Assembly (NCBI GenBank): GCA_016765265.1
Contig: JAESQG010000566.1
Coordinates: 1 to 34,528, forward strand
Source of the DNA: Pseudomonadales bacterium
GTDB lineage: Bacteria > Pseudomonadota > Gammaproteobacteria > Pseudomonadales > DC-out160
Reading direction: 5' to 3'
DNA: 34,528 nucleotides
Shown: positions 3,095-27,631 of the stretch, piece after piece
Layout of the letters: each line of letters begins with the position of its first letter
Position numbering within the stretch: the first letter of the stretch is position 1
Notes under the pieces: generated by a model
Database searches by the model: none
What the model was told of the DNA's origin: nothing
What the model saw: the letters and a program-made list of their open reading frames with translations, nothing else
Program-made: the position numbers and the translations under genes

Positions 3095-3201
3095 AACTCT
3101 TTCGTGAGATATTTTTCTAGTGATAAAAATATTCACAAACCTTTGACTATCACTTTGACTAAATCTATTCGTATTCATAGCTACTCCAATCTATTCTTAA
3201 A

Positions 3202-6756: not shown

Positions 6757-9700
6757 ATGCATATCTTTAATACTAAATTTTTTATAGTAATTTCGGCACA
6801 AATATTTTTACTTTTCATATCTATTCATTCTGAAGATTGGCCAATGTGGAAAGGTACCTCCGGACGCGGTGGAGTAAACAATGAGACATTACCCAGTAAA
6901 ATGAATTTGCTATGGACTCGTCAATTTCCAAAATCAAAACCAGCATGGGCTAATAACAAAAGCCAAGCAAAACTTCAGTTTGATGTATCCTTTCAACCAG
7001 TTGTTATGGGTAAAAGTATATTCGTACCTTCAAATGTTAATGATAGTGTAAGTGCATATGATACCGATAGCGGTAAGCAAAAATGGATTTTTTATTCTGA
7101 TGGCCCTGTAAGATTTGCACCCGTGGCCAATGATAATAAAGTTTATTTTGTATCGGATGACGGTTACTTGTATTGCCTCAATGCAGAATCAGGAAAACTA
7201 ATCTGGAAATATAATGGTGGACCTGAAAATAGGAAAATCCTTGGTCGTGATCGATTAATTTCTATCTGGCCAGCTCGTGGAGCACCAGTGCTAAAAAATA
7301 AAAAAATATTTTTTGCCGCCAGCATTTTCCCCTTTATGGGAACTTTCATTCATTGTGTGGATGCAAATTCAGGCAAAATGATTTGGAGAGATACAGGCAA
7401 CGGACCTAAATATTTTACGCAACCTCATGGTGCTGGATCTTTTGCTGGTCTTTCTCCTCAGGGATACCTTGCTGCAGGTGATAAATATTTAATCGTACCC
7501 GGAGGAAAATCTTTACCGGCTGTATATGACATTGAAACGGGGAAATTCTTATACTATTATTTGAACAGTAAGAAAGGCGGTTACAGTGTTCAAGCAGGTA
7601 AAAACTTTTATTTTACCGGTGGTTATGCCAATCAAATTAACAAAACAGAAAAAGGCTTTTCTATCATCAATGGTATATACGCCACTTACGGAAACACCTT
7701 AATTTCAGACAAGGCCATGTATCTTTTACATAATAGTATAATTACGGCTTACCGATTCAAGCCAGAATTTGAAATGAAGGTATATAAAAAAAATAGAAAA
7801 AAAGCTTATCTTACCATGCCAGTTTTGGGCGAATTCACAATTCCTTCGCCAAAAAGTGCTGTCAGGATCAAAGCCGGGAATCAAATTATTCTATATGAGC
7901 GTTACAAAAAACATCTTTACGCTGTTAAGCTACCAAATGAAGAAACACTATTAAAAGCAAAAGCCGGGGAATCTGTAAAACAAAACTTACCCACTATTTG
8001 GACTATCCCGACAGGAAAAAGCCCATGGTCTGTTATTGCTGCAGATAAAAAAGTTTTTGTGGTTACACACGAAGGACTATTATCTTGTTATGGTGCAAGC
8101 ACACAAGAGGTCCAAAAACATAACATTGCCTTAACTCCATTACCAGACACTTCAAACTCGGTTGCTAAATCATTGTTAGAAGTTTTAAAAGAATTGAAAA
8201 TTAAAGACGGCTATTGTGTTTTAGCAGGCTTAGGAAATGATAAATTAGCTGAAACGCTAATTAACAAAACAAACCTTTCTATAATTGCTGTCGATTCAGA
8301 TAAATCAAAAATAAATTCATTAAGACATTCAACTGATCAAGCTGGCTTTTATGGCAATAGAATGTCAGTACATGAAGGCGATCCCCTTTCATATCCACTC
8401 CCACCCTATTTCGCAAACATAATAATTATAACAAATTTAAGCAAACGTTTTTTATATAGTAAATCTAACTTAAAAACTTTATTTAATTCACTACGTCCTT
8501 ATGGTGGCACAGCTTTCTTTAAAGTATCTCCATCAGATATTGATAAAGTTAAAGCTCTATCTACAAAAGCAGGTCTTATTAATGCTGAAATAAAAGCTTC
8601 AAATGGATGGATGCTCTTAATTCGTAAGGGCGCACTTCCTGATTCTGCAGAATGGTCCCACCAGTATGCCGATTCATCAAATAGTATATTTGGCAAAGAT
8701 AAACTTGTCAAACTACCCCTAGGATTATTATGGTTTGGCGGTCCTCCAAATACAAATGTTCTACCAAGACATGGTCATGGTCCATCCCCTCAAGTGGCAG
8801 GCGGCAGAGTTATTATAGAAGGTCAGAATATGTTAAGGGCTGTTGATGCTTACACAGGCAGGTTACTTTGGGAACTTAAGTTAAAAAATCTAGGATATTA
8901 TTATCGACATACGGGCCATCATCCTGGTGCTAATGAAATTGGAGGAAATTACGTATCATTACAAGACACTATATATGTTGCTTATGGGAAAGATCTTTTA
9001 TTTTTAGAAGCAGCTACAGGCAATTTGTTAAAAAAAATAAATTACAAAGAAAATGATAGCGACAAAGAATCTAAAACATGGGGTCATATTTCTGTTCACA
9101 AAAATTATTTAATTACAACAACCTCACCAATTACATTTAAAATACAAAAAGATAAAACAGCTATAATAAATAAAAATGCAAAGTATTCTTCTGGAAGTGA
9201 ACAAATAATAGTACTTAATCGCAAGACGGGAAAAATACTCTGGAAACGAAAAGCCAAATTCAATTTTAGGCACAATGCCATATGCAGTGGCGATGGTGTC
9301 TTATTTTGCATTGACTCTTTCTCAAAAAGTAAATTTAATTATTTAAGAAACCAAGAAGAGAAAATCGGAAAACTATTAGCACTTGATATCAAAACTGGGA
9401 AAGAAATTTGGTCCAGTAATGAAAATATAACAGGAACCTTTTTAAATTATTCTGATAAACACAAAGTCCTTCTCCAGGCCGGTAGCTCCAACCGAGACAG
9501 GGCCAGAGATGAGACAAAAACAGGCATGATAGTTTATCAAGCTAAAGATGGAAAAGTAGTCTGGCAAAATTTAAAAATAAAATACGGAGGCCCATTAATT
9601 ATCCGACACAAAGAAATCATTACCAATGGTGGTGGTGGCACAGGAATTGATTTACTTTCAGGCAAAGCCACAAGTTTTAAGTGGAAACGAAACTACGGAT

Positions 9701-10446
9701 GCAACACCGCTATTAGTTCAGAACACCTACTGACCTTTCGATCAGGGGCAGCAGGTTTTTATGATTTAACTAATAGAGGCGGAACAGGAAACTTCGGTGG
9801 TTTTAAATCCAGTTGTACATCAAATCTTATTCCAGCTGATGGAATACTAAATGCTCCCGATTATACCAGATCTTGTTCATGTGCTTATCAGCTCACTGTC
9901 TCCTGTGCTTTGGTCCATATGCCTGATGTAGAGTACTGGACATTTAAAGCTGATGCTACTCCTGGAAAATGGGGATTCAATATTGCTGCATTAGGAGATA
10001 GGAAAGTCCCCAATGGTTCTTTGTGGCGAAAATTTGACATTTTAAAAAACAGAAAATATATACGATCAACTTCTGGCAAATTAACACCGTTCAGAGTTCA
10101 TTCAGGCTACGTTAAAGGAGAAAAGTTTAAATGGGTTGCTTCCTCTGGAGTAAAAGGTTTAACTGATTTAAACATCAATGTTAAGGGAGCTACCAAAGGT
10201 ACCGTTAGGCTAATTTTCATGGAACCAGACAAACTCAAAATAGGAGATAGAATCTTTGATATATCATTGCAGGGAAAAGAGTTAATTAAAGGGCTTGATA
10301 TAATCAAAGAATCTGGAGGACAAAATCATGTCCTGATCAAAGAATTTAAAGATATCGAATTAAACAATTCATTAAAAATTATATTTAAAGCATCCACAAA
10401 GAACCCACCTATTCTCAGCGGAATAGAAATTATCAAAACAAATTAG
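6757..10446 (+). CDS. secreted PQQ-like beta-propeller repeat protein with a central Rossmann/methyltransferase-like insert and a C-terminal malectin-like domain
   Basis: The N-terminus is hydrophobic (FFIVISAQIFLLFISIHS). BamB/PQQ-like repeats recur (SGKQKWIF, DGYLYCLNAESGKLIWKY, DANSGKMIW, DAYTGRLLWE, NRKTGKILWK, DIKTGKEIW). The C-terminus IFDISLQGKELIKGLDIIKESGG resembles malectin domains. The ORF track starts at TTG 6742; ATG 6757 is preferred. Confidence 0.6.
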   Translation: MHIFNTKFFIVISAQIFLLFISIHSEDWPMWKGTSGRGGVNNETLPSKMNLLWTRQFPKSKPAWANNKSQAKLQFDVSFQPVVMGKSIFVPSNVNDSVSAYDTDSGKQKWIFYSDGPVRFAPVANDNKVYFVSDDGYLYCLNAESGKLIWKYNGGPENRKILGRDRLISIWPARGAPVLKNKKIFFAASIFPFMGTFIHCVDANSGKMIWRDTGNGPKYFTQPHGAGSFAGLSPQGYLAAGDKYLIVPGGKSLPAVYDIETGKFLYYYLNSKKGGYSVQAGKNFYFTGGYANQINKTEKGFSIINGIYATYGNTLISDKAMYLLHNSIITAYRFKPEFEMKVYKKNRKKAYLTMPVLGEFTIPSPKSAVRIKAGNQIILYERYKKHLYAVKLPNEETLLKAKAGESVKQNLPTIWTIPTGKSPWSVIAADKKVFVVTHEGLLSCYGASTQEVQKHNIALTPLPDTSNSVAKSLLEVLKELKIKDGYCVLAGLGNDKLAETLINKTNLSIIAVDSDKSKINSLRHSTDQAGFYGNRMSVHEGDPLSYPLPPYFANIIIITNLSKRFLYSKSNLKTLFNSLRPYGGTAFFKVSPSDIDKVKALSTKAGLINAEIKASNGWMLLIRKGALPDSAEWSHQYADSSNSIFGKDKLVKLPLGLLWFGGPPNTNVLPRHGHGPSPQVAGGRVIIEGQNMLRAVDAYTGRLLWELKLKNLGYYYRHTGHHPGANEIGGNYVSLQDTIYVAYGKDLLFLEAATGNLLKKINYKENDSDKESKTWGHISVHKNYLITTTSPITFKIQKDKTAIINKNAKYSSGSEQIIVLNRKTGKILWKRKAKFNFRHNAICSGDGVLFCIDSFSKSKFNYLRNQEEKIGKLLALDIKTGKEIWSSNENITGTFLNYSDKHKVLLQAGSSNRDRARDETKTGMIVYQAKDGKVVWQNLKIKYGGPLIIRHKEIITNGGGGTGIDLLSGKATSFKWKRNYGCNTAISSEHLLTFRSGAAGFYDLTNRGGTGNFGGFKSSCTSNLIPADGILNAPDYTRSCSCAYQLTVSCALVHMPDVEYWTFKADATPGKWGFNIAALGDRKVPNGSLWRKFDILKNRKYIRSTSGKLTPFRVHSGYVKGEKFKWVASSGVKGLTDLNINVKGATKGTVRLIFMEPDKLKIGDRIFDISLQGKELIKGLDIIKESGGQNHVLIKEFKDIELNNSLKIIFKASTKNPPILSGIEIIKTN

Positions 10447-13421: not shown

Positions 13422-15041
13422 CTATTTAACAATAAACTCAGCACTTGTCTCTTCGCTCTCCGCAAAACCAATTCGAATAGATTTAGTTCTAATTCGATAA
13501 CTACCTTTTTCTAACATTAAAGGTTCATGATACAATTGCCATTTAATATTTTCTCCATTTTCAAACGTGTAGGCAATTGAGGCTCCCTGAGTCATGCAAA
13601 CTAATTGAACTCGAGTTGGTGAAGAAAACTCTCCTCCCATTGGTGTCAATTCAGACTCTAACTTGTTTTTATCTAGCGGGAAAAATTTCACGACACTAGT
13701 TTGTGGTTGCTTACCATCAGGATACCAATTTCTTACCATTTCTTCTTCAGTTATTTTTCCTAAATCTCCAATATCAAACATCCATTGATCAAGAGCTTTA
13801 CGCAATCTTTTTATTTCAATTTTGTATTTAGAATCTTTTGCTAAATTATTGACTTCATGGGGATCTTCTACAATATCATATAATTCTTCTGAAGGTTTTT
13901 TTTCAAACATTAATTTCTGCACATCATTCAGCTCATCACTAAAATACAAACGATGCATCTCCTGAACTATGGGATGACGATTACAATAAGGTGTAAAAGG
14001 CAAATAAGGAGAATGAAGATCATAATGTCTCATATATTTAAATTTTTTATCTCGAACAGCTCTCACCATATCATAACTTTCATCGTGCCTATCCCGATGA
14101 GCAAAAATATATTCTCGGGCGTCCTCTTTTTCGTTTCCTAAGAACGCTTGGCCTTGCATATACTGAGGGATCTCTAGTCCTGCCAAGGACATCATCGTTG
14201 GTCCAAGATCAACTGAACTAATCAAGTCCTCATTTATTGAATCTGGCTTAACGTTCTCAGGATATCGAATGATCATAGGTATATGAATTCCAGAATCATA
14301 AGGCCAACGTTTACCGCGAGGCATTGGACCATGATCACTCCAATGTACTACGATGGTATTTTCAGCCAAGCCATCTTCGTCCAATTCTTTTAAAAGATTG
14401 CCTAATTGTTGATCCGCCCATTCAATGTTAGCATACATTTGAGTCATAGACTCTCTAACTTTTTTAGTATCAGGAAAATAAGGTGGCAAGACCATATCAT
14501 CAGGATTAAAATTATTTTCACACCATTTATTCTCTGGCCACATGCCACTTTCATGCGTTAACATCGGATTAAATACTGCGAAAAAAGGCTGTTCTGTATT
14601 CGGACGATTTCTCCAATGAGCCTCTTTTCCTAATTCATCCCAAGCCGTAACGGGTGATTCAAATTGATAATCAGTCTTATGATTATTAGTACAATAATAT
14701 CCGCTTGCTCTAAAATATTCTGTAAAACATTTTACATAATGAGGCAACTTAGCATCATAGGGCGTGGGAAGCTCTCTACAGTTATCATTATTATGTGTCG
14801 TTCGCATATGATGAGTACCAATAGAAGTCGGATACATCCCTGTGATTACCGCTGACCTTGACGGAGAACAAACACCCGATGGCGCGAATGCATTGGGCCA
14901 AATACAGCCATCTTTTGCAAGCTGATCAACTATTGGAGTACGGGCAACCTGATCACCATAACATCCATAAAATGGATTCGAATCTTCAAAAGATACCCAT
15001 AAGATATTCGGCCTGTTCTTAGCATTACTATTCTTACTCAT
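13422..15041 (-). CDS. sulfatase (formylglycine type) with a C-terminal beta-sandwich domain; no signal peptide
   Basis: PNILWVSFEDSNP followed by the CSPSRSAVITG C-x-P-x-R motif, then WSDHGP. The start is set at ATG 15041 (MSKNS); the ORF-track GTG at 15074 adds 11 residues. Confidence 0.85.
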   Translation of the reverse strand: MSKNSNAKNRPNILWVSFEDSNPFYGCYGDQVARTPIVDQLAKDGCIWPNAFAPSGVCSPSRSAVITGMYPTSIGTHHMRTTHNNDNCRELPTPYDAKLPHYVKCFTEYFRASGYYCTNNHKTDYQFESPVTAWDELGKEAHWRNRPNTEQPFFAVFNPMLTHESGMWPENKWCENNFNPDDMVLPPYFPDTKKVRESMTQMYANIEWADQQLGNLLKELDEDGLAENTIVVHWSDHGPMPRGKRWPYDSGIHIPMIIRYPENVKPDSINEDLISSVDLGPTMMSLAGLEIPQYMQGQAFLGNEKEDAREYIFAHRDRHDESYDMVRAVRDKKFKYMRHYDLHSPYLPFTPYCNRHPIVQEMHRLYFSDELNDVQKLMFEKKPSEELYDIVEDPHEVNNLAKDSKYKIEIKRLRKALDQWMFDIGDLGKITEEEMVRNWYPDGKQPQTSVVKFFPLDKNKLESELTPMGGEFSSPTRVQLVCMTQGASIAYTFENGENIKWQLYHEPLMLEKGSYRIRTKSIRIGFAESEETSAEFIVK

Positions 15042-15088
15042 TTTATTATTTCCAATTAAAATAATTGATATCACATGCTAGTAGTCAT

Positions 15089-15105
15089 ATGGTAGCACAA
15101 GCTTC
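15089..15105 (+). promoter_or_regulatory. 17-nt motif ATGGTAGCACAAGCTTC, copy 1 (divergent sulfatase intergenic region)
   Basis: It is identical to 30305-30321. A near-identical inverted copy lies at 15164-15180. Confidence 0.35.
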
Positions 15106-15163
15106 CAGCATGTAACTAAAATGCTGATTATAGAATATAATATGAAAAAATTCACAACAAGCT

Positions 15164-15180
15164 AGAAGCTTGTACTACAT
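15164..15180 (-). promoter_or_regulatory. inverted near-copy of the sulfatase-associated motif
   Basis: The minus strand reads ATGTAGTACAAGCTTCT. GTAGTACAAGCTTC matches GTAGCACAAGCTTC at 13 of 14 positions. It is oriented toward the minus-strand sulfatase. Confidence 0.3.
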
Positions 15181-15287
15181 AAATATTTCAATTTAAAATT
15201 TTATTATCAAGATTGAGACATTCATTGCAATCTATGAAATATCACTATAACCATTTATACTTTTGATCACAATAATGAGGAACAATC

Positions 15288-16655
15288 ATGTCGGAGAAAC
15301 CAAACATAATTTTAATCAATTGCGATGACCTAGGTTATGGTGACCTAGCCTGTTATGGATCAAAAGTTAATAAGACTCCAGCACTTGATAAGCTGGCAGC
15401 CGAAGGAATTAAATTCACTGATTTTTATATGACATCACCTGTCTGCTCACCTTCTAGAGGTTCCATGCTAACAGGCTGCTATCCTCCAAGAATAGGTTTT
15501 GGATCTTTTGTGAATGGCGGCTGGGTATTATTTCCAGGTGACGCATTAGGATTACATGAAGATGAAATTACGATTGCAAAATTATTAAAACAAGCAGACT
15601 ATCAAACTAAGATAGTTGGCAAATGGCACTGCGGAGACCAAAAAGAATTTCTACCAATACGACATGGGTTTGATAGTTATTATGGCATACCCTATAGTAA
15701 TGACATGGGACGCCAAAATGCCGATGATAAACAACCACCCCTACCTCTTTTAAAAGATGAAGAAGTCATCCAAGAACAACCAGATCAAAGAGGAATAACC
15801 GAGCGATACACCGAGGAATGCGTTTCTTTTATTCGAGATAATAAAGACAAACCATTCTTTTTATACCTAGCCCATATGTATGTTCATTTACCCATTTATG
15901 TACCAAAACAATTTCTCGATAAAGCTGAAAATGGACCTTATGGTGCTGCCGTTGAACACATTGATTGGGTTACTGCTGTTCTAATGGATGAACTTAAAAG
16001 GCAAGGCATAGACGATAATACATTAATCGTCTTTACCAGCGACAATGGATCTCGCGCTCAAGGGGAAGGTGGCAGCAATGCTCCACTAAGAGGACGTAAA
16101 ACCCAAACCTGGGAAGGTGGCCAAAGATTACCATGCATTATGCGTTGGCCAAGAAAAATAAAATCAGGTCTCGTCAATAAAGAAATCACCTCATCTATGG
16201 ATTTCTATAAAACATTCGCTGCCCTGGCAGGTGTAGAAATACCAACAGATAGAATTATTGATGGTAAAGATATTCGACCAATGCTTTTTAATGAGCCAGA
16301 TGCCAAAAGTCAATACGATGCTTTTTTTTATTATAAATGCAATGATTTAGAAGCCGTTCGCTCTGGAAAATGGAAGCTACATGTGTCAAGAGACAAAGTA
16401 AAGGTTGAAGAATTATACAATTTAGAGTCTGACATAGGCGAACAAACAAACCTCTTTAATCAAGAACCTGAAATAGTCAAAGACTTAATGATAAAAATTA
16501 AAGCATGTCAAAAAGATATCGGTGATGAAGCCGCTGGTATAAAAGGGGAGAATATACGCCCTATCGGAAAAGTTGACAGCCCTGATACGCTAACTCACTA
16601 CGATCCCGAGCATCCATACATTATTGCATTATACGATTTAAAAGAACGTGGTTAG
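15288..16655 (+). CDS. sulfatase (formylglycine type); no signal peptide
   Basis: PNIILINCDDLGYGD, the CSPSRGSMLTG motif, TSDNG and GGQRLP are present. A GAGGA Shine-Dalgarno sequence precedes the ATG. Confidence 0.9.
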   Translation: MSEKPNIILINCDDLGYGDLACYGSKVNKTPALDKLAAEGIKFTDFYMTSPVCSPSRGSMLTGCYPPRIGFGSFVNGGWVLFPGDALGLHEDEITIAKLLKQADYQTKIVGKWHCGDQKEFLPIRHGFDSYYGIPYSNDMGRQNADDKQPPLPLLKDEEVIQEQPDQRGITERYTEECVSFIRDNKDKPFFLYLAHMYVHLPIYVPKQFLDKAENGPYGAAVEHIDWVTAVLMDELKRQGIDDNTLIVFTSDNGSRAQGEGGSNAPLRGRKTQTWEGGQRLPCIMRWPRKIKSGLVNKEITSSMDFYKTFAALAGVEIPTDRIIDGKDIRPMLFNEPDAKSQYDAFFYYKCNDLEAVRSGKWKLHVSRDKVKVEELYNLESDIGEQTNLFNQEPEIVKDLMIKIKACQKDIGDEAAGIKGENIRPIGKVDSPDTLTHYDPEHPYIIALYDLKERG

Positions 16656-16720: not shown

Positions 16721-17896
16721 CTAAGCAAGAACAAGTTCATGTTCAACACCAAAGTAACACATTTCATCTACACTCATTGGTCTACTTGATTCACGAATAA
16801 AATCACCAATATAGGCTTCCTGCATTTCTAAAACAAAATAGTTGTACAATGTTTTTCTCCCAACTCTTGCTGTTGTATTTCTACCAGCAATTATTTTTTC
16901 TTCAGCTTTACCAAGATCTAGTTTTAATAAGACGGCAGGAGCTCCTTGAACCCTTCCACAAGGCTTAGAGTCACCAATTACTTCAAAACATAAAAGTCTT
17001 TTGTAATAGCCAACATGTCGAGGGTTAACCTCAATCAACATATGATCAGATGCAAGGTTTTTATATGCATGTATATAAACAAAGTTCATAAGATTTTTAA
17101 TTAGGTTTCGAGAGTTCCTATAGCTTTCATCAACAACCAATCGAGTTATCTCCACCATTTTTTTATTTTGATTATTCAACTCACTTAATTCGTCTTTAAA
17201 TATTTTCTGACAAGGAATATCGCCATGAACATTTGACACTACTGAAATAGAAGCCACAGAATTTCCATTTTCGTCTTCTGCTAAAAAAGTAATTGTATCC
17301 GGCCTTGCATCGTCACTATTAACAAATAATTTATTTCGATCTTGAGATGAATAGCCACACTGACCATATACTTTTTGAGATAATTGATAAACTTTCTCTC
17401 TATCAACTCGATTAGAAGCCACACTAATTCTAAAGTTGATCTTTTCAGATATCTCCCATTTTGGAGAACCAATTTCTACTTCTTCTTTTAATACCCATAG
17501 TGCTTGAGAAGTTGCTGAACGTTTTTTCTCTTTGATTTGATGCTTTTTCTCAATCTCATCTCGCACTTCAATTTTTTCACTCTTCAATACCTGTTTTAAT
17601 TTTCCGCCTGAGAGAAAAATATCCTCTCTATCCTTTGCACCCAATTGAATTAAAAAATCATGAACAATACATTTATCAGATATAGAAGTTAACACTAATG
17701 AAAGACTAACGACTAAAGCTCCCAAATTCCAATAAGGGTTGTACATACTCATGAGTAGAAAAATAGAAATTAAAAACCCACTGATTAGTCTTCCATATCT
17801 ATCCACACTCCAGTGACTAAAACTTTTAGACAAAGCTGCTTTAAAACCATTTAAATGATTGTTCAGTTTTGGGGTCTGAATCGCTGAAATACTCAT
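16721..17896 (-). CDS. membrane-anchored FeeM-type N-acyl amino acid synthase (NAS paralog B): DUF2892/YgaP-like two-helix N-terminus plus NAS domain
   Basis: The N-terminus has VDRYGRLISGFL (the DRxxRxxxG signature), two hydrophobic helices, and SDKCIVHDFLIQLG. The C-terminal part carries NAS motifs INFRISVASNRVDREKVYQLSQKVY, VEITRLVVDESYR and EVNPRHVGYYKRLLCFEVIG. A GGGAGA Shine-Dalgarno sequence precedes the ATG. Confidence 0.7.
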   Translation of the reverse strand: MSISAIQTPKLNNHLNGFKAALSKSFSHWSVDRYGRLISGFLISIFLLMSMYNPYWNLGALVVSLSLVLTSISDKCIVHDFLIQLGAKDREDIFLSGGKLKQVLKSEKIEVRDEIEKKHQIKEKKRSATSQALWVLKEEVEIGSPKWEISEKINFRISVASNRVDREKVYQLSQKVYGQCGYSSQDRNKLFVNSDDARPDTITFLAEDENGNSVASISVVSNVHGDIPCQKIFKDELSELNNQNKKMVEITRLVVDESYRNSRNLIKNLMNFVYIHAYKNLASDHMLIEVNPRHVGYYKRLLCFEVIGDSKPCGRVQGAPAVLLKLDLGKAEEKIIAGRNTTARVGRKTLYNYFVLEMQEAYIGDFIRESSRPMSVDEMCYFGVEHELVLA

Positions 17897-17935
17897 TGTC
17901 TTTCTCCCATTAAATATCTGAATTAAATCTTCTAA

Positions 17936-17951
17936 TGCAAATCACAAGCCA
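17936..17951 (-). promoter_or_regulatory. sigma-54 (-24/-12) promoter candidate for NAS B
   Basis: The minus strand reads TGGCTT-GTGAT-TTGCA, close to the consensus TGGCAC-N5-TTGCW. GG is at 17950/17949 and GC at 17938/17937, 10 nt apart. The element is about 40 nt upstream of ATG 17896. Confidence 0.7.
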
Positions 17952-18030
17952 AATTTCAATAAATCGTAAGTTCCTAATTTTAAAAGAGTTATGATAAATG
18001 CTCAACATTTAGCACTGGAAATAATTGACT

Positions 18031-18066
18031 TATATAGATCAATTAAAACTTAAATTGATCTATATA
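18031..18066. promoter_or_regulatory. perfect 14-bp inverted repeat; candidate enhancer (UAS) for bEBP 2
   Basis: TATATAGATCAATT (18031-18044), an 8-nt spacer, then AATTGATCTATATA (18053-18066). Its centre is about 100 nt upstream of the -24 element of the NAS B promoter and about 75 nt upstream of the bEBP 2 ATG. Confidence 0.45.
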
Positions 18067-18124
18067 GATTATTACAATTCCTAATATACAATAAGTAATA
18101 AAAATTAAACCAAGGAAAGTAGCG

Positions 18125-20422
18125 ATGAGTTTTATTGATGCATGGTTAAATGAGGATCAAACAGCCATGGACAATCTCCTAAAAAAGAGTTCCAAAAATA
18201 AAAAACTCCACCAAGCTTACGAGGCAATAATAAATTCCAACAATTCAGATTCATTGAAATTCAAATCGTTAATCAATGTTATTGAAGACCCACCTGATGA
18301 CCTTGAAATTTATTCTCTTCTACTTTACTTAGCAGCAGACGTGGCCTATGCCACCAACAATTTTTCCGAATTAAATAGAATAATTCAAATCTATCAAAAT
18401 CTAGATCTTTCAAAAATAAAAAGCATATGTAAAAGTCTATTTTACTTATCATTAGCACGCCTAGAATTATCTAAAAATATGTCTGACCAACAACTTGAAT
18501 CAGAAATAAAAGCAGAAAGTCTATATCCAAAAGGGTCAATACGGTGGTATAAAATGAAGGCGAAAGTGACCTTAGGATGCATACTCCACAAAAAGGAATA
18601 CGATATTTCAAAGGCAATTAAAATATTAAAAGGATACCCTCAATTCTCTGAATCAACCTTTCCACCTGAATACCTTCAAGCAAGATATTATGAATCAATT
18701 GGAAAGTTATCATTGGCCTATCAGGAAATTAACAAGATTAAAAACATAGCCATATTTGGAAAGTTTGGAGAAAATATATTCTCACAAAAAGTAAAACTTT
18801 TGTGGAGAGCTGGAAAAATTGAAGAAGGTGATATAGAGCTAGAAAAATATTTGAACATGTACCCAGAATTAATCGGCAATAGATCCGGCAAGTTTTTATT
18901 AGCAGAAAGAAGCATGCTATTAAATGATTCAAATGGTACAAAACAGCATTTAAAGGAAATCTTAGCTGACAAAAAGGTTTTATCGCTTAGTAGATTTTGG
19001 GCGAATTATTTATTGCTTTGCGCAGAGTTAGCTCAACGACAAACAGTATCCGCTCGCAGAATATTAAATACAATGGATCCAGAAGGAACCAATAAGGGAC
19101 TTTTTACAGAGTGGGTAAGATTATATACTCAGGAAGACAATTACAGAAAAGCAGCCTATTATTTCAAGAAGATGCAAGAAGATCGTCCAAATTATCTTTT
19201 AGAGTTTCATTATGCTCACGAAATGAGAGCTTCACAGATCACAAAATTAATATTGACGATCAATGATGAAGAGTTCAATGAAGTAAAGAGTGTTATAGAA
19301 AAACCACACTATAAAATCGATGACACTAAAGACTCTTTTGAAAATTTCATAGGAACCTCAGAAAGTATTAACACCGTAAAAGAAAACATACAGAAATATG
19401 CCAATCAATCAGCACCCGTTTTAATTACAGGCGCAACTGGTACAGGAAAAGAAGAAACAGCCAAACTACTTCATAAACTTTCTGATAGGTCAAAAGAACC
19501 TTTTATTCCTGTCAACTGTGGAGCCATATCCAACACCTTAATGGAAGCAGAATTATTTGGCTATAAAAAAGGAGCATTTACAGGTGCCATGAAAGATCAT
19601 AAAGGTCTCTTTGAATCTGCAGGCAAAGGCACCATTTTTCTTGATGAGATCAGCTCTATGCCCATGCCCTTACAAGCTTCTCTTTTACGAGTATTAGAAA
19701 ATATGATCGTCAGACCAGTAGGAAGTACAAAATTTATTCCTATTGAGGCAAGAGTTATTGCGGCGACAAATATTAGCCTGGAAATATTATTAGAACAAAA
19801 AACATTTCGCATGGATCTTTACTTTCGCCTTAATAGATTACAAATCAATCTACCTTCTCTTCAAGATAGAAGAGATGACATTCCTCTTTTAATTCAACAC
19901 TTTTTGGGCCATCATTTTAATCTTTCAGACACAACCATAGATAAAAATTTATTGGATGCAATGCAAGAGCATTCTTGGCCTGGTAATATCAGAGAATTAA
20001 AAAATGAAATCGAAAGAATGGCCATTATTACCGGCAATAATAAATTGATTACAAATGAGCTTGTAAATTTTAAGAGTTCCGAAATAAAAGAGAATATTGC
20101 ACCAATTGATATAAAACAAAAATCCTTCGTTTCAGATGAGAATAAAATCACTCCAATGACACAAGAAAATATTTATTCGCCACCTAATATCTCTTTAGAA
20201 AAAGGTGTGAAAAATTATAGCGAATATAGAAGGCAAGAATTACGACAATTATTCCAACAACACCGCTTATTAACACGAGCTATGGTTGTTCGGTTTTTAG
20301 GATGTGCTGCCAATACTGCTGCGAAAGACTTGAAGAGTTTAGAAACAGCAGGTTACTTAAAAAAGGTAATTCCTACCGATTCTCCAAGATCTTCCTATTA
20401 CATATTAAATGATAAAAATTAA
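18125..20422 (+). CDS. sigma-54-dependent transcriptional activator (bEBP 2), same architecture as bEBP 1
   Basis: Walker A GATGTGKE (about 19430-19453), GAFTGA (19571-19588), IFLDEISS, and EAELFGY are present. The C-terminus LTRAMVVRFLGCAANTAAKDLKSLETAGYLKKVIPTDSPRSSYY aligns with the bEBP 1 tail. The N-terminal domain is helical. Confidence 0.85.
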   Translation: MSFIDAWLNEDQTAMDNLLKKSSKNKKLHQAYEAIINSNNSDSLKFKSLINVIEDPPDDLEIYSLLLYLAADVAYATNNFSELNRIIQIYQNLDLSKIKSICKSLFYLSLARLELSKNMSDQQLESEIKAESLYPKGSIRWYKMKAKVTLGCILHKKEYDISKAIKILKGYPQFSESTFPPEYLQARYYESIGKLSLAYQEINKIKNIAIFGKFGENIFSQKVKLLWRAGKIEEGDIELEKYLNMYPELIGNRSGKFLLAERSMLLNDSNGTKQHLKEILADKKVLSLSRFWANYLLLCAELAQRQTVSARRILNTMDPEGTNKGLFTEWVRLYTQEDNYRKAAYYFKKMQEDRPNYLLEFHYAHEMRASQITKLILTINDEEFNEVKSVIEKPHYKIDDTKDSFENFIGTSESINTVKENIQKYANQSAPVLITGATGTGKEETAKLLHKLSDRSKEPFIPVNCGAISNTLMEAELFGYKKGAFTGAMKDHKGLFESAGKGTIFLDEISSMPMPLQASLLRVLENMIVRPVGSTKFIPIEARVIAATNISLEILLEQKTFRMDLYFRLNRLQINLPSLQDRRDDIPLLIQHFLGHHFNLSDTTIDKNLLDAMQEHSWPGNIRELKNEIERMAIITGNNKLITNELVNFKSSEIKENIAPIDIKQKSFVSDENKITPMTQENIYSPPNISLEKGVKNYSEYRRQELRQLFQQHRLLTRAMVVRFLGCAANTAAKDLKSLETAGYLKKVIPTDSPRSSYYILNDKN

Positions 20423-21615: not shown

Positions 21616-21670
21616 AATAGTAAGAATCCAAACTAAATAATAATTTTGATTCTAAAATGAAACAAAAATA

Positions 21671-21695
21671 AAGCTAGAACTATGCCTAGCTTTTT
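21671..21695. terminator. stem-loop terminator-like element (second of a tandem pair downstream of tRNA-Asn)
   Basis: AAGCTAG (21671-21677), an 8-nt loop, then CTAGCTT (21686-21692), flanked by an A-rich run on one side and a T-run on the other. Confidence 0.4.
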
Positions 21696-21750: not shown

Positions 21751-21782
21751 AAAAAAAAAGCCGGCGCAATGGCCGGCTTTTT
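21751..21782. terminator. bidirectional rho-independent terminator downstream of tRNA-Asn
   Basis: An A-run (9 nt) is followed by GCCGGC (21760-21765), loop GCAATG, GCCGGC (21772-21777) and TTTTT. Confidence 0.6.
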
Positions 21783-21785
21783 AAG

Positions 21786-21857
21786 CTCCCCCGACTGGAT
21801 TCGAACCAGTGACCAAGTGATTAACAGTCACCTACTCTACCGCTGAGCTACAGGGGA
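21786..21857 (-). tRNA. tRNA-Asn (anticodon GTT)
   Basis: The reverse complement folds as a cloverleaf: acceptor UCCCCUG/CGGGGGA, D stem GCUC/GAGU, anticodon stem GGUGA/UCACU with loop CUGUUAA, T arm ACUGG-UUCGAAU-CCAGU, discriminator G. It closely resembles E. coli tRNA-Asn. CCA is not encoded. Confidence 0.9.
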
Positions 21858-22222: not shown

Positions 22223-23461
22223 ATGAATCAACTTCCAAGAATTGTTATAACTGGCATTGGCTTAACGGCACCAAACGGCAATCAACTAGACGAATATAGA
22301 AATAATATCCTCGCAGGGAAATCAGGGGTTACCACAATTGATACTCATTACATGGGTGAATTAATTGCTGGGTGTTGCGATTTCGACACATTCCAATACC
22401 AAAAGAAAAAAGAAGTAAGAAGAGGTACTCGTGCTGGGTCCATTTCCATTTTCTGTGCAAATGAAGCGATTAAAAATGCTACCATTCAATTCGAAAATAT
22501 TGATAAAAGTAGAGTCGGTGTTTATATAGGAATTACCGAACATGGAAATGTAGAAACAGAAAACGAAATTTATAATATATCCCAATTTGGTTATGACACT
22601 AAATTTTGGTCACATCATCACAACCCTAGAACTGTTGCTAATAGCCCTGCTGGAGAAGTCACTTTAAATTTAGGGATTACAGGGCCACATTATTGTCTCG
22701 GTGCTGCATGTGCCGCAGGAAATATTGGACTAATTCAAGGGGCTCAAATGTTACAATTGGGCGAAGTCGATTTAGCATTAGCCGGAGGTGTATCAGAAAG
22801 TGTGCATACCTTTGGAATTTTTGCTGCCTTTAAAAGTCAAGGTGCCCTTGCTGAAAATGATGATCCTGAAAAAGCTAGTCGACCTTTCGATGTTGACCGA
22901 AATGGAATTGTTGTTTCAGAAGGCGGCTGCATCTATACTCTAGAAAGATTGGATGATGCGCTAAAAAGAAATGCACATATTTACGGCGAAATAGTTGGTC
23001 ATGCAATCAACAGTGATGCCACAGATTTTGTTTTGCCAAATCCCAAAAGACAAGGCGAATGCGTACAGTTAGCTCTGAATAAAGCCGGTTTAACTCCGAA
23101 TGATATTAATATAGTAAATACTCATGCCACATCAACTCCTCAAGGAGATATTCAAGAATGTGAAATGATTCGTAAGATATTTGGAAATAGTCCAAACACA
23201 TTCATCAATAATACAAAAAGTTTCATTGGCCATTGCATGGGCGCAGCTGGAACATTAGAATTAGCCGGAAATTTGCCCTCATTTGAGGATAATTTAGTTC
23301 ATCAGACAATCAATGTTGATAATTTAGATCCAGCATGTAATATTCAGAACTTAGTTATAAATGAACCCAGAAAAGTTGATAGCGTCAATTATATTCTAAA
23401 TAATTCATTTGGAATGGTCGGTATTAATTCTGTGTTAATTATTAAAAATTATAAAGAATAA
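22223..23461 (+). CDS. beta-ketoacyl-ACP synthase, KAS I/II (FabF/FabB-like, Cys-His-His type)
   Basis: RIVITGIGLTAPNG N-terminus, active-site Cys in LGAACAAGNIG, and His motifs NTHATSTPQGD and GHCMGAAG. Confidence 0.85.
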   Translation: MNQLPRIVITGIGLTAPNGNQLDEYRNNILAGKSGVTTIDTHYMGELIAGCCDFDTFQYQKKKEVRRGTRAGSISIFCANEAIKNATIQFENIDKSRVGVYIGITEHGNVETENEIYNISQFGYDTKFWSHHHNPRTVANSPAGEVTLNLGITGPHYCLGAACAAGNIGLIQGAQMLQLGEVDLALAGGVSESVHTFGIFAAFKSQGALAENDDPEKASRPFDVDRNGIVVSEGGCIYTLERLDDALKRNAHIYGEIVGHAINSDATDFVLPNPKRQGECVQLALNKAGLTPNDINIVNTHATSTPQGDIQECEMIRKIFGNSPNTFINNTKSFIGHCMGAAGTLELAGNLPSFEDNLVHQTINVDNLDPACNIQNLVINEPRKVDSVNYILNNSFGMVGINSVLIIKNYKE

Positions 23462-23494: not shown

Positions 23495-23746
23495 ATGACA
23501 GAAGAAGAGGTTCGGTCAGCAGTTGTTAAAATCATTGAAGATGTTGCCCCAGATGAAGATTTATCAGAAATTGACGATAATAAAGCCTTACGTGATCAAA
23601 TCGAATTGGACTCAATGGATTTTCTAGACATTGTTATGGAACTAAGAAAACGTTACAGCGTTGAAGTCCCGGAAGCAGAATACCCCGAATTAAATTCTCT
23701 CGCAAGTTGTGTTACATATTTAACACCAAAATTAAAAGACAAATAA
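23495..23746 (+). CDS. acyl carrier protein
   Basis: It is 83 aa and acidic, with the phosphopantetheine-attachment motif IELDSMDFLDIV. Confidence 0.85.
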   Translation: MTEEEVRSAVVKIIEDVAPDEDLSEIDDNKALRDQIELDSMDFLDIVMELRKRYSVEVPEAEYPELNSLASCVTYLTPKLKDK

Positions 23747-23802: not shown

Positions 23803-25197
23803 ATGCACTATGACGCCATAATCATTGGAGCAGGAATGTCCGGGATAGCTGCCGGAATTCGCTTAGCAATGTTTGATAAAAAGGTGTGCATATTAGAAAG
23901 CCATTATGTGATTGGCGGACTAAACTCCTTTTATAATATGAAAGCTCGAAAATTTGATGTTGGTTTACATGCCGTCACAAACTATGTACCTAGAGGCACC
24001 AAGGGTGCGCCACTAACTAAGTTATTTCGCCAGTTAAGAATTCCATATGAAGATTTTAAATTAAAACCTCAAAATTATTCAGAAGTTGTTTTCCCAAATA
24101 AGAGGATAACTTTTACAAATGATCCTAAACATCTGGAAGAATCTATTGCTAAAGAATTCCCTCATCAGATAGATCAATATATCAAACTTATCGAATTTAT
24201 TTTAAGTTATGATAATTTGACACTTGATAAAGTAGAGACACAAACAGCGCGAGAGTTCTTAAATGAAGTCTTTACCGACCAGACCCTCATTGAGATGATT
24301 CTATGCCCATTAACCTATTATGGCAGTGCCATAGAAAACGATATGGAATTAGGCCAATTTGTGACTATGTATAAAAGTATTCTCCTAGAAGGCTTTGCTA
24401 GACCAGATGAAGGCGTTAGACAAATATTAAAAGTTTTGAAAAAAAAATACAAAGAAGTTGGCGGTGAACTTAAATTAAGAAATGGCGTTACTAAATTAAT
24501 TAGAAAAAATGAATTAATTACAGAAATACATACCGAAAAAGAGGAAATTCTCACGGCTGATTTAATCATTTCTTCGGCTGGTTACCTTAATACTTTAAAT
24601 TTAATAGATGGCTATGAACCCCAAACCCCTCAAAAGTTTACCGGCATGATGAGTTTCATGGAAAGCATATCTTGTCTTTCAAAGCCACAAACAGACTTTA
24701 ACTATGATGCTTCCATTACATTTTTTAATACCCGTGAAAATTATTTATATGAAGACGCCAAGGATTTCATTGATCCCTGTAGTGGAGTTATCTGCAGCCC
24801 AGGAAACTATCAACTGGATAAACCCATCGATGAGCCAGTGATCCGCATCACCAATATTGCAAATTTTAAATTATGGGAAGATTTAAAAACAAATGATATT
24901 GATAAATATTATCATCAAAAAGAAGACTCGTACCAAAGATCGTTAAAAGAAGTTTTTAAATTTAAAGATGATTTCACAAGTGCTGTAACCTTCACTGATA
25001 TTTTTACTCCTCATACTATTAAAAGATATACGGGCCACATCAACGGAGCCGTATATGGCTCACCGGTTAAAACCAAAACGGGTAAAACCCCCTTCGATAA
25101 TCTAGTAATTTGCGGAACTGACCAAGGGTTTCTTGGCATTATTGGGGCTATCCTAAGTGGCATATCAATCTCTAACTTATATGGTCTTGTGAAATAA
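23803..25197 (+). CDS. FAD/NAD(P)-dependent oxidoreductase, phytoene-desaturase (CrtI)-like family
   Basis: N-terminal dinucleotide fold YDAIIIGAGMSGIAAGIRLA...ILESHYVIGG. Its length of about 460 aa is typical of amine-oxidase/CrtI-like flavoproteins. Confidence 0.7.
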   Translation: MHYDAIIIGAGMSGIAAGIRLAMFDKKVCILESHYVIGGLNSFYNMKARKFDVGLHAVTNYVPRGTKGAPLTKLFRQLRIPYEDFKLKPQNYSEVVFPNKRITFTNDPKHLEESIAKEFPHQIDQYIKLIEFILSYDNLTLDKVETQTAREFLNEVFTDQTLIEMILCPLTYYGSAIENDMELGQFVTMYKSILLEGFARPDEGVRQILKVLKKKYKEVGGELKLRNGVTKLIRKNELITEIHTEKEEILTADLIISSAGYLNTLNLIDGYEPQTPQKFTGMMSFMESISCLSKPQTDFNYDASITFFNTRENYLYEDAKDFIDPCSGVICSPGNYQLDKPIDEPVIRITNIANFKLWEDLKTNDIDKYYHQKEDSYQRSLKEVFKFKDDFTSAVTFTDIFTPHTIKRYTGHINGAVYGSPVKTKTGKTPFDNLVICGTDQGFLGIIGAILSGISISNLYGLVK

Positions 25198-25562: not shown

Positions 25563-26075
25563 ATGATGACCAAAAGAGCTCAAATATTAAACAAGTTCAT
25601 GAAGGATCAGGCAAAATTCAAAGCATTTGCTTATACCATGACATTAGACTGGTCAATTGCAGAAGATGCAACTCAGGAAACAGCCGTTTATATTTGTGAT
25701 CACTGGGAAAAATTCAAACTGGGCACCAATTTTAATGCCTGGGCACGCACACTTATCAAAAACAGATGTCGAGAGTTATTACGTAAAGAATACATGGAGC
25801 AGAAAAAGATTCATAAGATCGCCGAAGTAATAGAAGACACTGTCTGGGATCAAGTTGAAAATATTGATGGAGAAAAAATAAATGCTTTACATAGTTGTGT
25901 AGAAAAACTTCCGGCAAAAACAAAAAAAGTGTTCATGATGTTTTATCAAGAAAAAATTAAATGCCAGATAATTTCTGACTTTTTAAAAATAACTGAAGAA
26001 GCGACATATAAGATATTAAGTCGCACAAGGCGAAGTCTAAAAACCTGTATTACAAATCAAATGAAAGAGCTTTAG
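25563..26075 (+). CDS. ECF-family RNA polymerase sigma factor
   Basis: Region 2 (DATQETAVYICDHWEKF...FNAWARTLIKNRCRELLRKE) and region 4 (LPAKTKKVFMMFYQEKIKCQIISDFLKITEEATYKILSRTRRSL) are both present. Confidence 0.85.
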   Translation: MMTKRAQILNKFMKDQAKFKAFAYTMTLDWSIAEDATQETAVYICDHWEKFKLGTNFNAWARTLIKNRCRELLRKEYMEQKKIHKIAEVIEDTVWDQVENIDGEKINALHSCVEKLPAKTKKVFMMFYQEKIKCQIISDFLKITEEATYKILSRTRRSLKTCITNQMKEL

Positions 26076-26080
26076 AGAAA

Positions 26081-27631
26081 ATGAATAACCAAACAGAATA
26101 TTTCAACCTACTATTAGAAAAATATATTGCGAATGATCTATCAGATAATGAAAGTCTGAAACTAAAAAAATTGCTTTCAAACAATATGAATTATCAAAAG
26201 AAATTTGCAGAGGCGCTAACTTTCGAAGCAACCATACAAAATGTTATGAATGACAAAAATGCTGCTCTGAAAGAAGCTGAACAAAATGGAAAAATAATTC
26301 CATTTAAAAGCAAAACAAAACATCGAAGTAGAAGATTTCAAAATCAAAAACAAGAATCTAAAACAAATAAAATTCTAATTGCCATAGCAGCAATATTTGC
26401 AATATGTATTACTGGATGGATATACAAAGACACTCTAACTCAATACAACAATATAGCTATGGATGTTAAAATTGATGCCATAGGACAAGTGCAATTCACA
26501 AGAAATAATAAAAACACAAATTTATATTCCTTATCTCAATTAAAACCAGGCGATATTTTAGAAACAAAACAAAGCGAATATATAAAAATTATGACTAAAG
26601 ATGGCTCTAGCATTTTAGTCAATGAAAACACAAAAATTGTTGTGGGTGAAACTCGTTTAAATGTCCTAAAAGGTGATATTTACGCTAATATACAAAAAGG
26701 TGAAATAAATTATTTTAAAAATTATAGTACCGATCAGCAGCACTCATTTTCCATTCAAGGTACTATTTTTGAGATTTCAAATGATACACAAAATAATACT
26801 TCTAGACTTTCAGTTGAAGAGGGGCAAGTTTTATTCGCAAGAAATAAACAACACAAAATTATATCAAGCAGATATTCAATCATATCGAATAGCTTAAATG
26901 GATTTGGAGAAAAAAGAAAACTTCTAAAAAATGAAATTATTGCACCTTGGATAAGCTACTATTCTTATTTAAAAAATTCTGACGTTATTTTTATTGATAA
27001 TTTTGATTCAAAATCAATTAGAAAGGACTGGACCATTACTAAAACCGGTCAGTGTGAAATAACATATCCAAAATTTAAATCTGTTGCAGAGTTAAAGGTT
27101 AAAGGCTTATCAAAAATAATAATATCTTCGCCAATTATTAAGCTAGATGATCAACCAATGCATATACGTTTTAGTGAGGATCAAATATATGGAGAAGGTC
27201 CTTTTGAATATGGCTTTGCTATTTATATGAATGGAGAATTACAATTGGAACAATCTATAAGGGTTAAAAGAAAATCAAACAATAAATTTCACTTCATTGA
27301 AGTTATTATAGTAAATGGTGAAAAACAAAAGGGGAAGGGATCATTAGTAAGCGCCCAACTGCCAATAATTGAGACATCTTTTCATATATCACCTAGGCCA
27401 AAAGACGACACTGTTGATAAAAAAGTAACCATAGATTATAAACAATCAATCAGTATGCCCGAGATTACGAGCATTATCAAGGGTGAAAATATTCAAATTA
27501 AATACTTCCTAAAGGGGCTTTCAAAAGACGCAAAAGCAAATTTTGGTTTAGATGCTTTTATAGTTACAAAAAGTAAAAAGCTAACCAACAAAATTATCGC
27601 TGAGTTTATACCCTATATCAAAATTGAATAA
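26081..27631 (+). CDS. FecR-type transmembrane anti-sigma factor with an additional C-terminal domain of unknown function
   Basis: It starts 5 nt after the sigma gene stop. It has an N-terminal anti-sigma helix region, one TM segment (ILIAIAAIFAICITGWIY), and a FecR-like beta region (GDILETKQSEYIKIMTKDGSSILVNENTKIVV ... FSIQGTIFEISN ... VEEGQVLF). About 230 further residues are unassigned. Confidence 0.7.
   Translation: MNNQTEYFNLLLEKYIANDLSDNESLKLKKLLSNNMNYQKKFAEALTFEATIQNVMNDKNAALKEAEQNGKIIPFKSKTKHRSRRFQNQKQESKTNKILIAIAAIFAICITGWIYKDTLTQYNNIAMDVKIDAIGQVQFTRNNKNTNLYSLSQLKPGDILETKQSEYIKIMTKDGSSILVNENTKIVVGETRLNVLKGDIYANIQKGEINYFKNYSTDQQHSFSIQGTIFEISNDTQNNTSRLSVEEGQVLFARNKQHKIISSRYSIISNSLNGFGEKRKLLKNEIIAPWISYYSYLKNSDVIFIDNFDSKSIRKDWTITKTGQCEITYPKFKSVAELKVKGLSKIIISSPIIKLDDQPMHIRFSEDQIYGEGPFEYGFAIYMNGELQLEQSIRVKRKSNNKFHFIEVIIVNGEKQKGKGSLVSAQLPIIETSFHISPRPKDDTVDKKVTIDYKQSISMPEITSIIKGENIQIKYFLKGLSKDAKANFGLDAFIVTKSKKLTNKIIAEFIPYIKIE

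Follow-up and report, generated by a model that had tools for sequence, protein, structure and literature searches.

How does a bacterium switch on the synthesis of an N-acyl amino acid, and what cue throws the switch? The question is raised by two divergent genes on contig JAESQG010000566.1, analyzed here within a window of 34,528 nt, the whole stretch of DNA under study. One gene, identified from the open reading frame (ORF) list and Pfam FeeM, encodes a synthase of N-acyl amino acids (NAS B; 16721–17896, minus strand, 391 aa), and the other, from Pfam and an AlphaFold2 model, a one-component sigma-54 activator or bacterial enhancer-binding protein (bEBP2; 18125–20422, plus strand, 765 aa). 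Together with the 228-bp gap between them they make up cassette 2, which probably forms a sigma-54 switch, complete in itself, for transcribing a lipid-amino-acid synthase gene. The regulatory link from the activator to NAS B is itself quite probable, while sensing of the NAS product by bEBP2 is doubtful. The original prediction had described a second NAS/sigma-54-activator cassette at this position, driven by a near-consensus promoter. Its ORF positions stand, the domain content of both genes and the promoter bear out the cassette, and the -24/-12 element is present with the correct spacing and kept in related loci.

The Synthase and Its Membrane Domain

NAS B matches FeeM (PF21926) over aa 169–327 (E 2.3e-40, 138.4 bits against a curated cut-off of 27), and the two other synthases of the window, NAS A (143.4 bits) and NAS C (120.3 bits), also exceed the family threshold. 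This catalytic domain (16916–17392, minus strand) can be aligned with NAS A, NAS C and the NAS of related loci, and aa 156–325 match the solved FeeM structure 2G0B with an E-value of 5.6e-5. At the N-terminus (about aa 29–95; 17612–17812, minus strand) lies a two-helix membrane domain of the YgaP-like/DUF2892 kind with the sequence pattern WSVDRYGRLISG...NKC.VHDFLI.LGAK.RED. Its Pfam score, 17.9 bits, is below threshold; the domain is strongly conserved in the NAS of two related loci (L001 and L065), where it is better conserved than the catalytic domain. On these matches NAS B belongs to the FeeM family of N-acyl amino acid synthases and carries a conserved membrane anchor. As expected for its family, it would N-acylate an amino acid in a reaction dependent on acyl-ACP (acyl carrier protein). 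TIGR03694, the PEP-CTERM-associated acyltransferase (cut-off 111.95), gives only 32 bits for NAS A and no match for NAS B; the enzyme is clearly of the FeeM family, yet outside the PEP-CTERM-associated subfamily.

A ribosome-binding site (RBS), GGGAGAAAG, can be read at 17900–17908 (minus strand), 3 nt ahead of the NAS B ATG at 17896. Because the downstream sulfatase gene (15288–16655) is convergent, NAS B is apparently monocistronic. In another genome (L070, 629–6935), a YgaP-like membrane protein has a gene of its own, which overlaps a FeeM gene at the latter's start. The overlap suggests that the membrane domain and NAS function as a pair and that the two are fused in some cases, NAS B among them. 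Genes for an AMP-ligase, an ACP, a polyketide synthase (PKS) ketosynthase and an HMG-CoA synthase follow that FeeM gene downstream.

Promoter and Repeats in the Intergenic Gap

What in the gap could connect the two genes? The candidate sigma-54 promoter, TGGCTTGTGATTTGCA, occupies 17951–17936 on the minus strand, with GG at 17950–17949 and GC at 17938–17937 in GG-N10-GC spacing. Its 3' end is 40 nt ahead of the NAS B ATG, and transcription would start near 17925. The element matches the consensus at 9 of 11 positions. About 0.9 such sites are expected, and one is seen, on both strands of the 31.5-kb AT-rich part of the window (GC about 33% beyond position 3100), so the sequence match alone is unexceptional. 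What goes beyond chance is its position and strand within the gap, its scarcity elsewhere and its conservation in related loci. No GG-N10-GC element is found on the bEBP2-sense strand of the gap, nor upstream of most of 12 other window genes checked; the exceptions are a hairpin-embedded site 5' of a lipoprotein gene and weak 6/11 matches 5' of the beta-ketoacyl synthase (KAS) gene and of NAS C.

Further upstream lie two candidate upstream activating sequences (UAS): a proximal near-palindrome, AATTGACTTATATAGATCAATT (18023–18044), centered at about -108 from the inferred transcription start, and a distal one, AATTGATCTATATAGATTATT (18053–18073), centered at about -138 and lying 52–72 nt upstream of the bEBP2 start codon. 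The two centers are 30 bp apart. With up to three mismatches, TTGATCTATATAGATCAA occurs in the window at these two places only, against an expectation of 0.05. The palindromes are placed as expected for activator binding sites, and bEBP2 is presumed to bind them. Since the candidate sites lie 52–102 nt upstream of its own start codon, bEBP2 probably autoregulates, a speculative point.

The comparison with the four closest relatives of bEBP2 carries the most weight. These proteins, P0002 (locus L065), P0003 (L001, from the genome NORP49), P0004 (L003) and P0005 (L066), are 44–46% identical to bEBP2, and P0002, at 46%, is closer to it than is bEBP1, its partner within the window. All four loci keep the same layout: repeats, 70–110 nt, a sigma-54 promoter, an AAGGAG-type RBS and a divergent target. 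The promoters are TGGTCTTTGTTTTGCA in L065, TGGCATGTGCCTTGCG in L001, TGGCTTAAAACTTGCC in L003 and TGGCTCATTAATTGCC in L066. L065, L003 and L066 have inverted repeats of the CATATAGAT/ATCTATATG type, with the TATAGAT-type repeat in the same place as in cassette 2, and L001 has a diverged variant with the core TTGCGTCTAT/ATAGACGCAA. This conserved layout is the strongest evidence that promoter and repeats are likely to be functional and to belong to the adjacent activator.

The target itself is not constant. L065 and L001 have a divergent NAS with an N-terminal DUF2892/YgaP-like membrane domain as in NAS B, and cassette 2 appears to have been inherited as a unit, because NAS B and bEBP2 rank these relatives alike (L065 above L001). 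In L003 (5583–6440) and L066 (49–930), the NAS is replaced by a divergent, sigma-54-driven gene for an S-adenosylmethionine (SAM)-methyltransferase-like protein of 285–293 aa. The two proteins are 82% identical to each other and have hydrophobic C-terminal segments, and in both loci a gene for an FAD oxidoreductase (577 aa) lies downstream of the activator. Sensor identity to bEBP2 is 30–34% in all comparisons within this clade, NAS-linked or methyltransferase-linked, and does not track the type of target.

The Architecture of bEBP2

Pfam recognizes Sigma54_activat (E 6e-63, 211.9 bits) and AAA_lid_14 in bEBP2. The full-length AlphaFold2 model, with a mean predicted local distance difference test (pLDDT) score of 80, consists of a helical solenoid (aa 1–385), the AAA+ domain, a disordered linker (aa 651–696) and a winged helix (aa 698–761). 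The solenoid (18125–19279, plus strand), all-helical and resembling tetratricopeptide repeats (TPR) according to the model and Foldseek, is the presumed sensor. The AAA+ sigma-54 interaction domain with its lid (aa 405–645; 19337–20059, plus strand) carries the Walker A motif GATGTGKE, the GAFTGA loop and the Walker B motif FLDEI. The winged helix-turn-helix (HTH) at the C-terminus (20216–20407, plus strand) is presumed to bind DNA from its topology in the model and its family-wide conservation.

Searched with the full-length model, Foldseek returns only AAA+ structures (FleQ, NtrC1, PspF and others; E 1e-15 to 1e-18). The N-terminal domain modeled alone (pLDDT 83) matches generic TPR superhelices from LGN, APC/C subunits and OGT (E about 1e-4), with no RRNPP, MalT or other receptor-specific match, and its sequence profile finds the TPR of kinesin light chain in the PDB (E 5e-4). 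No Pfam model covers the first ~400 aa, and the N-terminal domain has no NCBIfam match, PrsT included. The named activator equivalogs (PrsR TIGR02915, NtrC, DmpR/MobR and others) cover the AAA+ domain only and score far below their cut-offs (PrsR, 260 against 502). At the other end, the Fis-type HTH_8, which is common in activators but not obligatory, has no Pfam match in bEBP2. The predicted build is thus unusual, combining a TPR-like N-terminus, an AAA+ domain with GAFTGA and a winged helix instead of a Fis-type HTH.

A Family of Activators, Partly Tied to NAS Genes

Is bEBP2 an isolated oddity? A homologue search gave about 20 full-length relatives that ranked above many ordinary NtrC-type proteins matching the AAA+ domain alone. 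Their alignment shares a ~400-aa N-terminal region, a GAFTGA-bearing AAA+ domain and a tail of the form LT[RK]-x12-T-x3-DL-x2-L-x13-[ST]-x4-Y[FY], and contains no Fis-type HTH; bEBP2 and bEBP1, the activator of cassette 1, both have the N-terminal profile, the AAA+ domain and the tail. The family is rare: searched against 1.84 billion clusters at 50% identity, the N-terminal profile matched 340 representatives (257 at E <= 1e-10). Nearly all are 740–830 aa long, so the domain hardly occurs outside this architecture. A homologue search with the N-terminus of bEBP1 alone returned nothing. Mean pairwise identity across the family is 18.5% for TPR aa 1–290, 31% for TPR aa 291–385, 54% for the AAA+ domain and 42% for the winged helix, a pattern that suggests a hypervariable input, a junction and a motor that are both conserved, and a DNA reader of moderate variability.

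A degenerate 174-nt DNA pattern built on the tail was run against contigs from one genome per species and retrieved 56 stretches, every one of them a true family member by hidden Markov model (HMM). The hosts are nearly all metagenome-assembled genomes (MAGs) labeled Planctomycetota, Lentisphaerae, Victivallales, Kiritimatiellae or Verrucomicrobia, that is, phyla of the Planctomycetes-Verrucomicrobia-Chlamydiae (PVC) group; the remainder comprise a few labeled "uncultured bacterium" and three contigs in MAGs labeled Bdellovibrio (two) and Gemmatimonadales (one). Copies accumulate within genomes, with about 11 in CALGYR01, 8 in NORP49 and 5 in each of two others. NORP49, a MAG from subseafloor-aquifer samples, is the closest relative of the window; along a portion of NAS C the two are 80% identical in nucleotides. 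Cassette 2 thus seems to be one of many divergent modules per genome, found almost only in PVC-labeled MAGs.

Clustering of 48 full-length members separated two groups. Among the 28 members of the NAS-linked clades, 14 have a divergent NAS, 5 a NAS nearby and 4 no NAS (5 not assessable); among the 20 members of the sister clade, none has a divergent or nearby NAS (17 without NAS, 3 not assessable), and the genes beside these activators are mostly unannotated. Of 13 non-redundant divergent NAS/activator pairs, 12 have a sigma-54 element that faces the NAS and matches 7–9 of 11 consensus positions, with the shared form YGGCAT-N5-TTGCT. Per-locus shuffle p-values for the 12 range from 0.005 to 0.4 (at most 0.04 in 9 of them), and the activator-sense strand is weaker or empty in all but one of the 12. 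Literature searches turned up no paper that links sigma-54 or enhancer-binding proteins to N-acyl amino acid synthases, and no description of the TPR-AAA+-winged-helix architecture. The family would thus be a new one of one-component sigma-54 activators, with one large subgroup apparently tied to NAS genes.

Other arrangements occur around family members. In L008 (3733–10612), three tandem activators of 760–762 aa stand opposite a glycosyltransferase-FeeM-hexapeptide-transferase operon, and in L033 (4819–7677; NORP49) a 953-aa PQQ_2 beta-propeller protein is the divergent neighbor of another family activator.

Could the two genes of cassette 2 nevertheless be functionally unconnected, with a -24/-12 element arisen by chance, a sigma-70 promoter driving NAS B and bEBP2 acting on targets elsewhere? 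Roughly one chance match is expected in the AT-rich part of the window, as noted above, and a weak sigma-70-like site (9/12) is present on the NAS B strand at 18005–17977. Chance would also have to account for promoter and repeats at the same position in four diverged relatives, for a sigma-54 element in nearly every NAS/activator pair and for a palindrome unique to the NAS B/bEBP2 gap, and we regard such a coincidence as scarcely credible. Some observations do weigh against a sigma-54 switch. TGGCTTGTGATTTGCA departs from the consensus at two -24 positions (TGGCTT against TGGCAC), and about one match of such quality is expected per 63 kb scanned; the pair in L044 is without a sigma-54 element; no published case of a sigma-54 AAA+ domain gated by TPR was found; and the DNA-binding role of the tail rests on model topology and conservation, because HTH_DeoR on aa 702–748 stays below threshold (18.2 bits against a cut-off of 21).

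Two Cassettes in One Window

Cassette 1 comprises NAS A (3202–4029, minus strand) and bEBP1 (4224–6602, plus strand, 792 aa), which has the same architecture as bEBP2. The start of NAS A has been revised: ATG 4029, preceded by AGGAGA, is most likely, because the listed ATG 4071 falls inside the -12 element. The sigma-54-like element of this cassette, CGGCATACTAAATGCT (4082–4067, minus strand), has near-identical counterparts 5' of the NAS genes beside the NORP49 relative of bEBP1. A 16-mer, AGTCAAAATAATTATC (4145–4160, minus strand), is a candidate UAS or architectural site. As AGTCAAAATAATTRTC, the 16-mer is shared by cassette 1 and its NORP49 relative, in each case about 60 nt upstream of the -24 element; it occurs once in the window and, among 71 loci, solely in L067 and L068, two copies of the NORP49 locus. 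The best relative of bEBP1 is P0134 from NORP49 (47% identical overall, 62% in the C-terminal half), and NAS genes lie to either side of it. The divergent NMO-FeeM operon lies behind CTGGCACTAGAAATGCT, and the downstream FeeM-oxidase fusion, the counterpart of NAS C, behind CGGCATATGAAATGCT, which is nearly identical to the NAS A promoter of the window.

NAS C itself (27872–30301, plus strand), a FeeM domain fused to an FAD-linked oxidase, follows genes for an extracytoplasmic function (ECF) sigma factor (25563–26075) and a FecR-like protein (26081–27631), and no family activator adjoins it in the window. Its NAS domain is 49% and its oxidase domain 84% identical to the NORP49 counterpart (L040/L067). 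The region upstream of NAS C cannot be aligned with that of the counterpart and contains only a weak GG-N10-GC element (27648–27663), which looks like regulatory rewiring relative to NORP49.

How far apart are the two cassettes? The NAS are 34% (A/B), 41% (B/C) and 32% (A/C) identical. The activators are 38% identical over the C-terminal 485 aa and have no BLASTP similarity within the first ~290 aa; by region, identity is 15% (N-terminal domain), 47% (AAA+ domain) and 37% (winged-helix tail). These values bear out the earlier view that the cassettes are strongly diverged paralogues: they are old and did not arise by a recent duplication. The motifs said to be shared are present, apart from minor departures: GAFTGA and the LTR...KDLK.L...P..SPRS.Y tail are common to both activators, NAS C has EVTRL for EITRL and NAS A has HPRH..FY for NPRH..YY. 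A check for co-divergence of synthase and activator, as proposed with the original prediction, gives r = 0.73 over 16 pairs (Mantel p = 2e-4), a correlation confounded by species relatedness and for that reason given little weight.

It is also conceivable that the cassettes are redundant duplicates, making the same product under interchangeable activators. They do have architecture and enzyme family in common. However, the low identities of sensor, winged helix and NAS, the membrane domain of NAS B that NAS A lacks, the dissimilar upstream repeats and the closer relatives of both activators in other genomes (bEBP2 with P0002, bEBP1 with P0134) make redundancy very improbable. The differing candidate binding sequences fit insulation at the DNA level, and the distinct conserved upstream elements, sensors and synthases likewise fit insulation between the two cassettes, short of proof.

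What Might bEBP2 Sense?

The preferred reading of cassette 2 as a switch can be put in steps. Acting as a cytoplasmic one-component activator, bEBP2 would bind the two sites at 18023–18044 and 18053–18073 through its C-terminal winged helix. The TPR-like input module would restrain the AAA+ domain until a ligand or partner binds, by analogy with one-component sigma-54 activators. Once released, the AAA+ ring, with ATP and its GAFTGA loops, would open the promoter at 17951–17936 to yield a single-gene NAS B message, and the membrane-anchored enzyme would take a long acyl chain from acyl-ACP and join it to an amino acid, so forming an N-acyl amino acid. The same sites may serve the activator's own gene, again speculatively.

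Which ligand or partner releases the activator? It is possible, though on balance unlikely, that the NAS B product or a derivative of it is the ligand of the TPR domain, in a positive feedback of the cell-density type resembling LuxI/LuxR, with cassette 1 as a second, insulated channel; the original prediction had suggested two orthogonal signal/receptor channels. The synthase adjoins the dedicated regulator that would drive it, many diverged pairs occur per genome, and NAS-less activators recall LuxR solos. No part of the activator evolves nearly as fast as the sensor (18.5% identity against 54% in the AAA+ domain), and the synthase evolves fast as well, as the NAS domain of NAS C shows beside its fused oxidase (49% against 84% with NORP49). 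Identities of NAS and activator co-vary, with the confounding by species relatedness noted above, and the candidate binding sites are distinct between cassettes. Van Wagoner and Clardy are said to have reported in 2006 that the FeeM fold resembles that of LuxI-type synthases.

Several findings speak against such feedback. Two bEBP2 relatives drive a methyltransferase-like gene with sensors no more diverged than the others (30–34%), and the 20-member sister clade is without a NAS nearby (17 none, 3 not assessable). The fold matches are generic TPR superhelices, with no RRNPP-type receptor among them, and we know of no matched superhelix that binds lipids or amphiphiles. Sigma-54 promoters have very low basal activity, with which an autoinduction loop fits awkwardly. 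Finally, related NAS are wired to other regulators, of the ECF sigma type or, in Stieleria, of the DegU type.

Alternatively, bEBP2 may sense an unrelated cytoplasmic cue (a metabolite, a partner protein or a stress), with NAS B making a lipid that does work of its own, for example as an aminolipid of the membrane, as a surfactant or as an N-acyl amino acid of antibiotic-like kind; paralogous pairs would then wire conditions to lipids. We give this somewhat less than an even chance. It agrees with the anchoring of NAS B in the membrane by a conserved domain, with the exchange of targets within one activator clade, with NAS relatives that follow envelope-type ECF sigma/anti-sigma sensors, and with NAS genes beside KAS/ACP/oxidase or PKS-type genes, a setting typical of lipid natural-product clusters. 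The TPR fold matches also come from protein complexes (LGN, APC/C, kinesin light chain), and stieleriacines, N-acyl tyrosines of a planctomycete, affect the biofilms of other species (PMC7293339). By itself, however, an unrelated cue does not account for the fast evolution of synthase domain and sensor or for inheritance as a unit, and up to some 11 regulators per genome are many for the synthesis of structural lipids.

A single sensor shared by all NAS-linked regulators was considered and rejected, as the ECF-like sigma factors encoded ahead of some NAS genes have C-terminal extensions without homology to the TPR domain. In L069 (3438–6100) and L071 (3543–5849), the NAS lies directly downstream of a gene for such a protein, a ~480-aa sigma-70/ECF-like polypeptide that contains a transmembrane segment and whose C-terminal domain is of unknown type. 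In the NAS locus L007 (11164–12630), a similar protein of 488 aa is encoded some 3 kb downstream from the activator. ThiF-like and nitroreductase-like genes recur by NAS genes in L001, L007 and L071.

Comparison with Known Systems

The one-component activators of the DmpR/XylR, NorR, PrpR and TyrR type resemble bEBP2 in uniting a sensor, a GAFTGA-bearing AAA+ domain and a C-terminal DNA-binding domain in a single polypeptide, and in acting on a neighboring target, often a divergent one, from upstream sites (candidate sites for bEBP2) at about -100 to -140. They differ in that the bEBP2 sensor is a TPR-like solenoid of ~385 aa without a Pfam or NCBIfam model, and in that bEBP2 has a winged helix and no Fis-type HTH_8, falling outside all named families. 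Compared with solved FeeM, NAS B adds the DUF2892/YgaP-like domain, a conserved C-terminal extension and a dedicated sigma-54 activator. The pairing of an acyl-transferring synthase with its regulator, the several diverged pairs per genome and the synthase-less regulators are all reminiscent of LuxI/LuxR. Here, however, the output is sigma-54-dependent and ligand sensing only a candidate, and Pfam finds no LuxI (Autoind_synth) or LuxR (Autoind_bind/GerE) domains in NAS B and bEBP2.

The proteobacterial PEP-CTERM system unites sigma-54 promoters, the activator PrsR and the TPR protein PrsT in one neighborhood; PrsT is a separate TPR lipoprotein and PrsR a phosphorylated response regulator (PMC1569441). 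The PrsK/PrsR/PrsT system thus shares with cassette 2 the sigma-54 promoters with an activator, the TPR and, by the family name of TIGR03694, a NAS-like acyltransferase. In contrast, cassette 2 has no receiver domain and no kinase, its TPR is fused to the activator rather than carried by a lipoprotein, and no exosortase is found in the window. The stieleriacine cluster of Stieleria maiorica, also a PVC bacterium, brings together several NAS, a KAS II gene and a regulator, there annotated as DegU-type and not as a sigma-54 activator; its authors raise a signaling role for the product (PMC7293339). The RRNPP/AimR proteins likewise join a cytoplasmic TPR sensor to a DNA-binding output but have an N-terminal HTH, sense peptides and act on sigma-70 promoters.

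Other Features of the Window

Between cassette 2 and NAS C lie genes for a beta-ketoacyl synthase (22223–23461), an acyl carrier protein (23495–23746) and an FAD amine-oxidase/desaturase-like protein (23803–25197). These could supply or tailor the acyl chains of the NAS; a KAS II gene is also present in the Stieleria NAS cluster. A tRNA-Asn (GTT; 21785–21857, minus strand), the only Rfam match across the window, and strong terminator-like hairpins at 21755–21782 and 21670–21693 are also present. The tRNA separates cassette 2 and the neighboring lipoprotein gene from the KAS/ACP genes.

After bEBP1, a 1234-aa protein with PQQ-like beta-propeller and malectin domains is encoded at 6742–10446 from a TTG start, with no sigma-54 element upstream. 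Four sulfatase-like genes stand among the NAS cassettes (13422–16655, 30428–31960, 32974–34476), as is typical of marine PVC polysaccharide degraders. The first part of the window (1–3100) has about 50% GC and contains an Rrf2 regulator (802–1293), a NifS/IscS-like gene (1356–2579) and a second class-V aminotransferase ORF starting at 2813. The homology of the latter ends abruptly at about 3097, exactly at the drop in GC, and the break reflects either a chimeric join in the assembly or the border of an insertion or deletion.

Significance

N-acyl amino acids are widespread as bacterial lipids, with a native role and a regulation that are poorly understood, and we know of no established quorum sensing or cell-cell signaling system in bacteria of the PVC group. 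It is rather improbable, if attractive, that PVC bacteria (Lentisphaerae/Planctomycetes-like) use long-chain N-acyl amino acids as autoinducers read by TPR-AAA+-winged-helix activators, with up to some ten insulated channels per genome plus solos. Whichever cue is sensed, the analysis defines a previously undescribed family of sigma-54 activators with a sensor without a database model and a non-canonical DNA-binding domain, and a clear subset of it is tied to NAS genes through conserved promoters and candidate binding sites. Cassette 2 offers a compact, testable circuit (one promoter, two candidate sites, an activator and an enzyme) for asking whether these lipids are signals. If the two cassettes are insulated from one another, they would furthermore be a source of tightly controlled, non-interfering switches.

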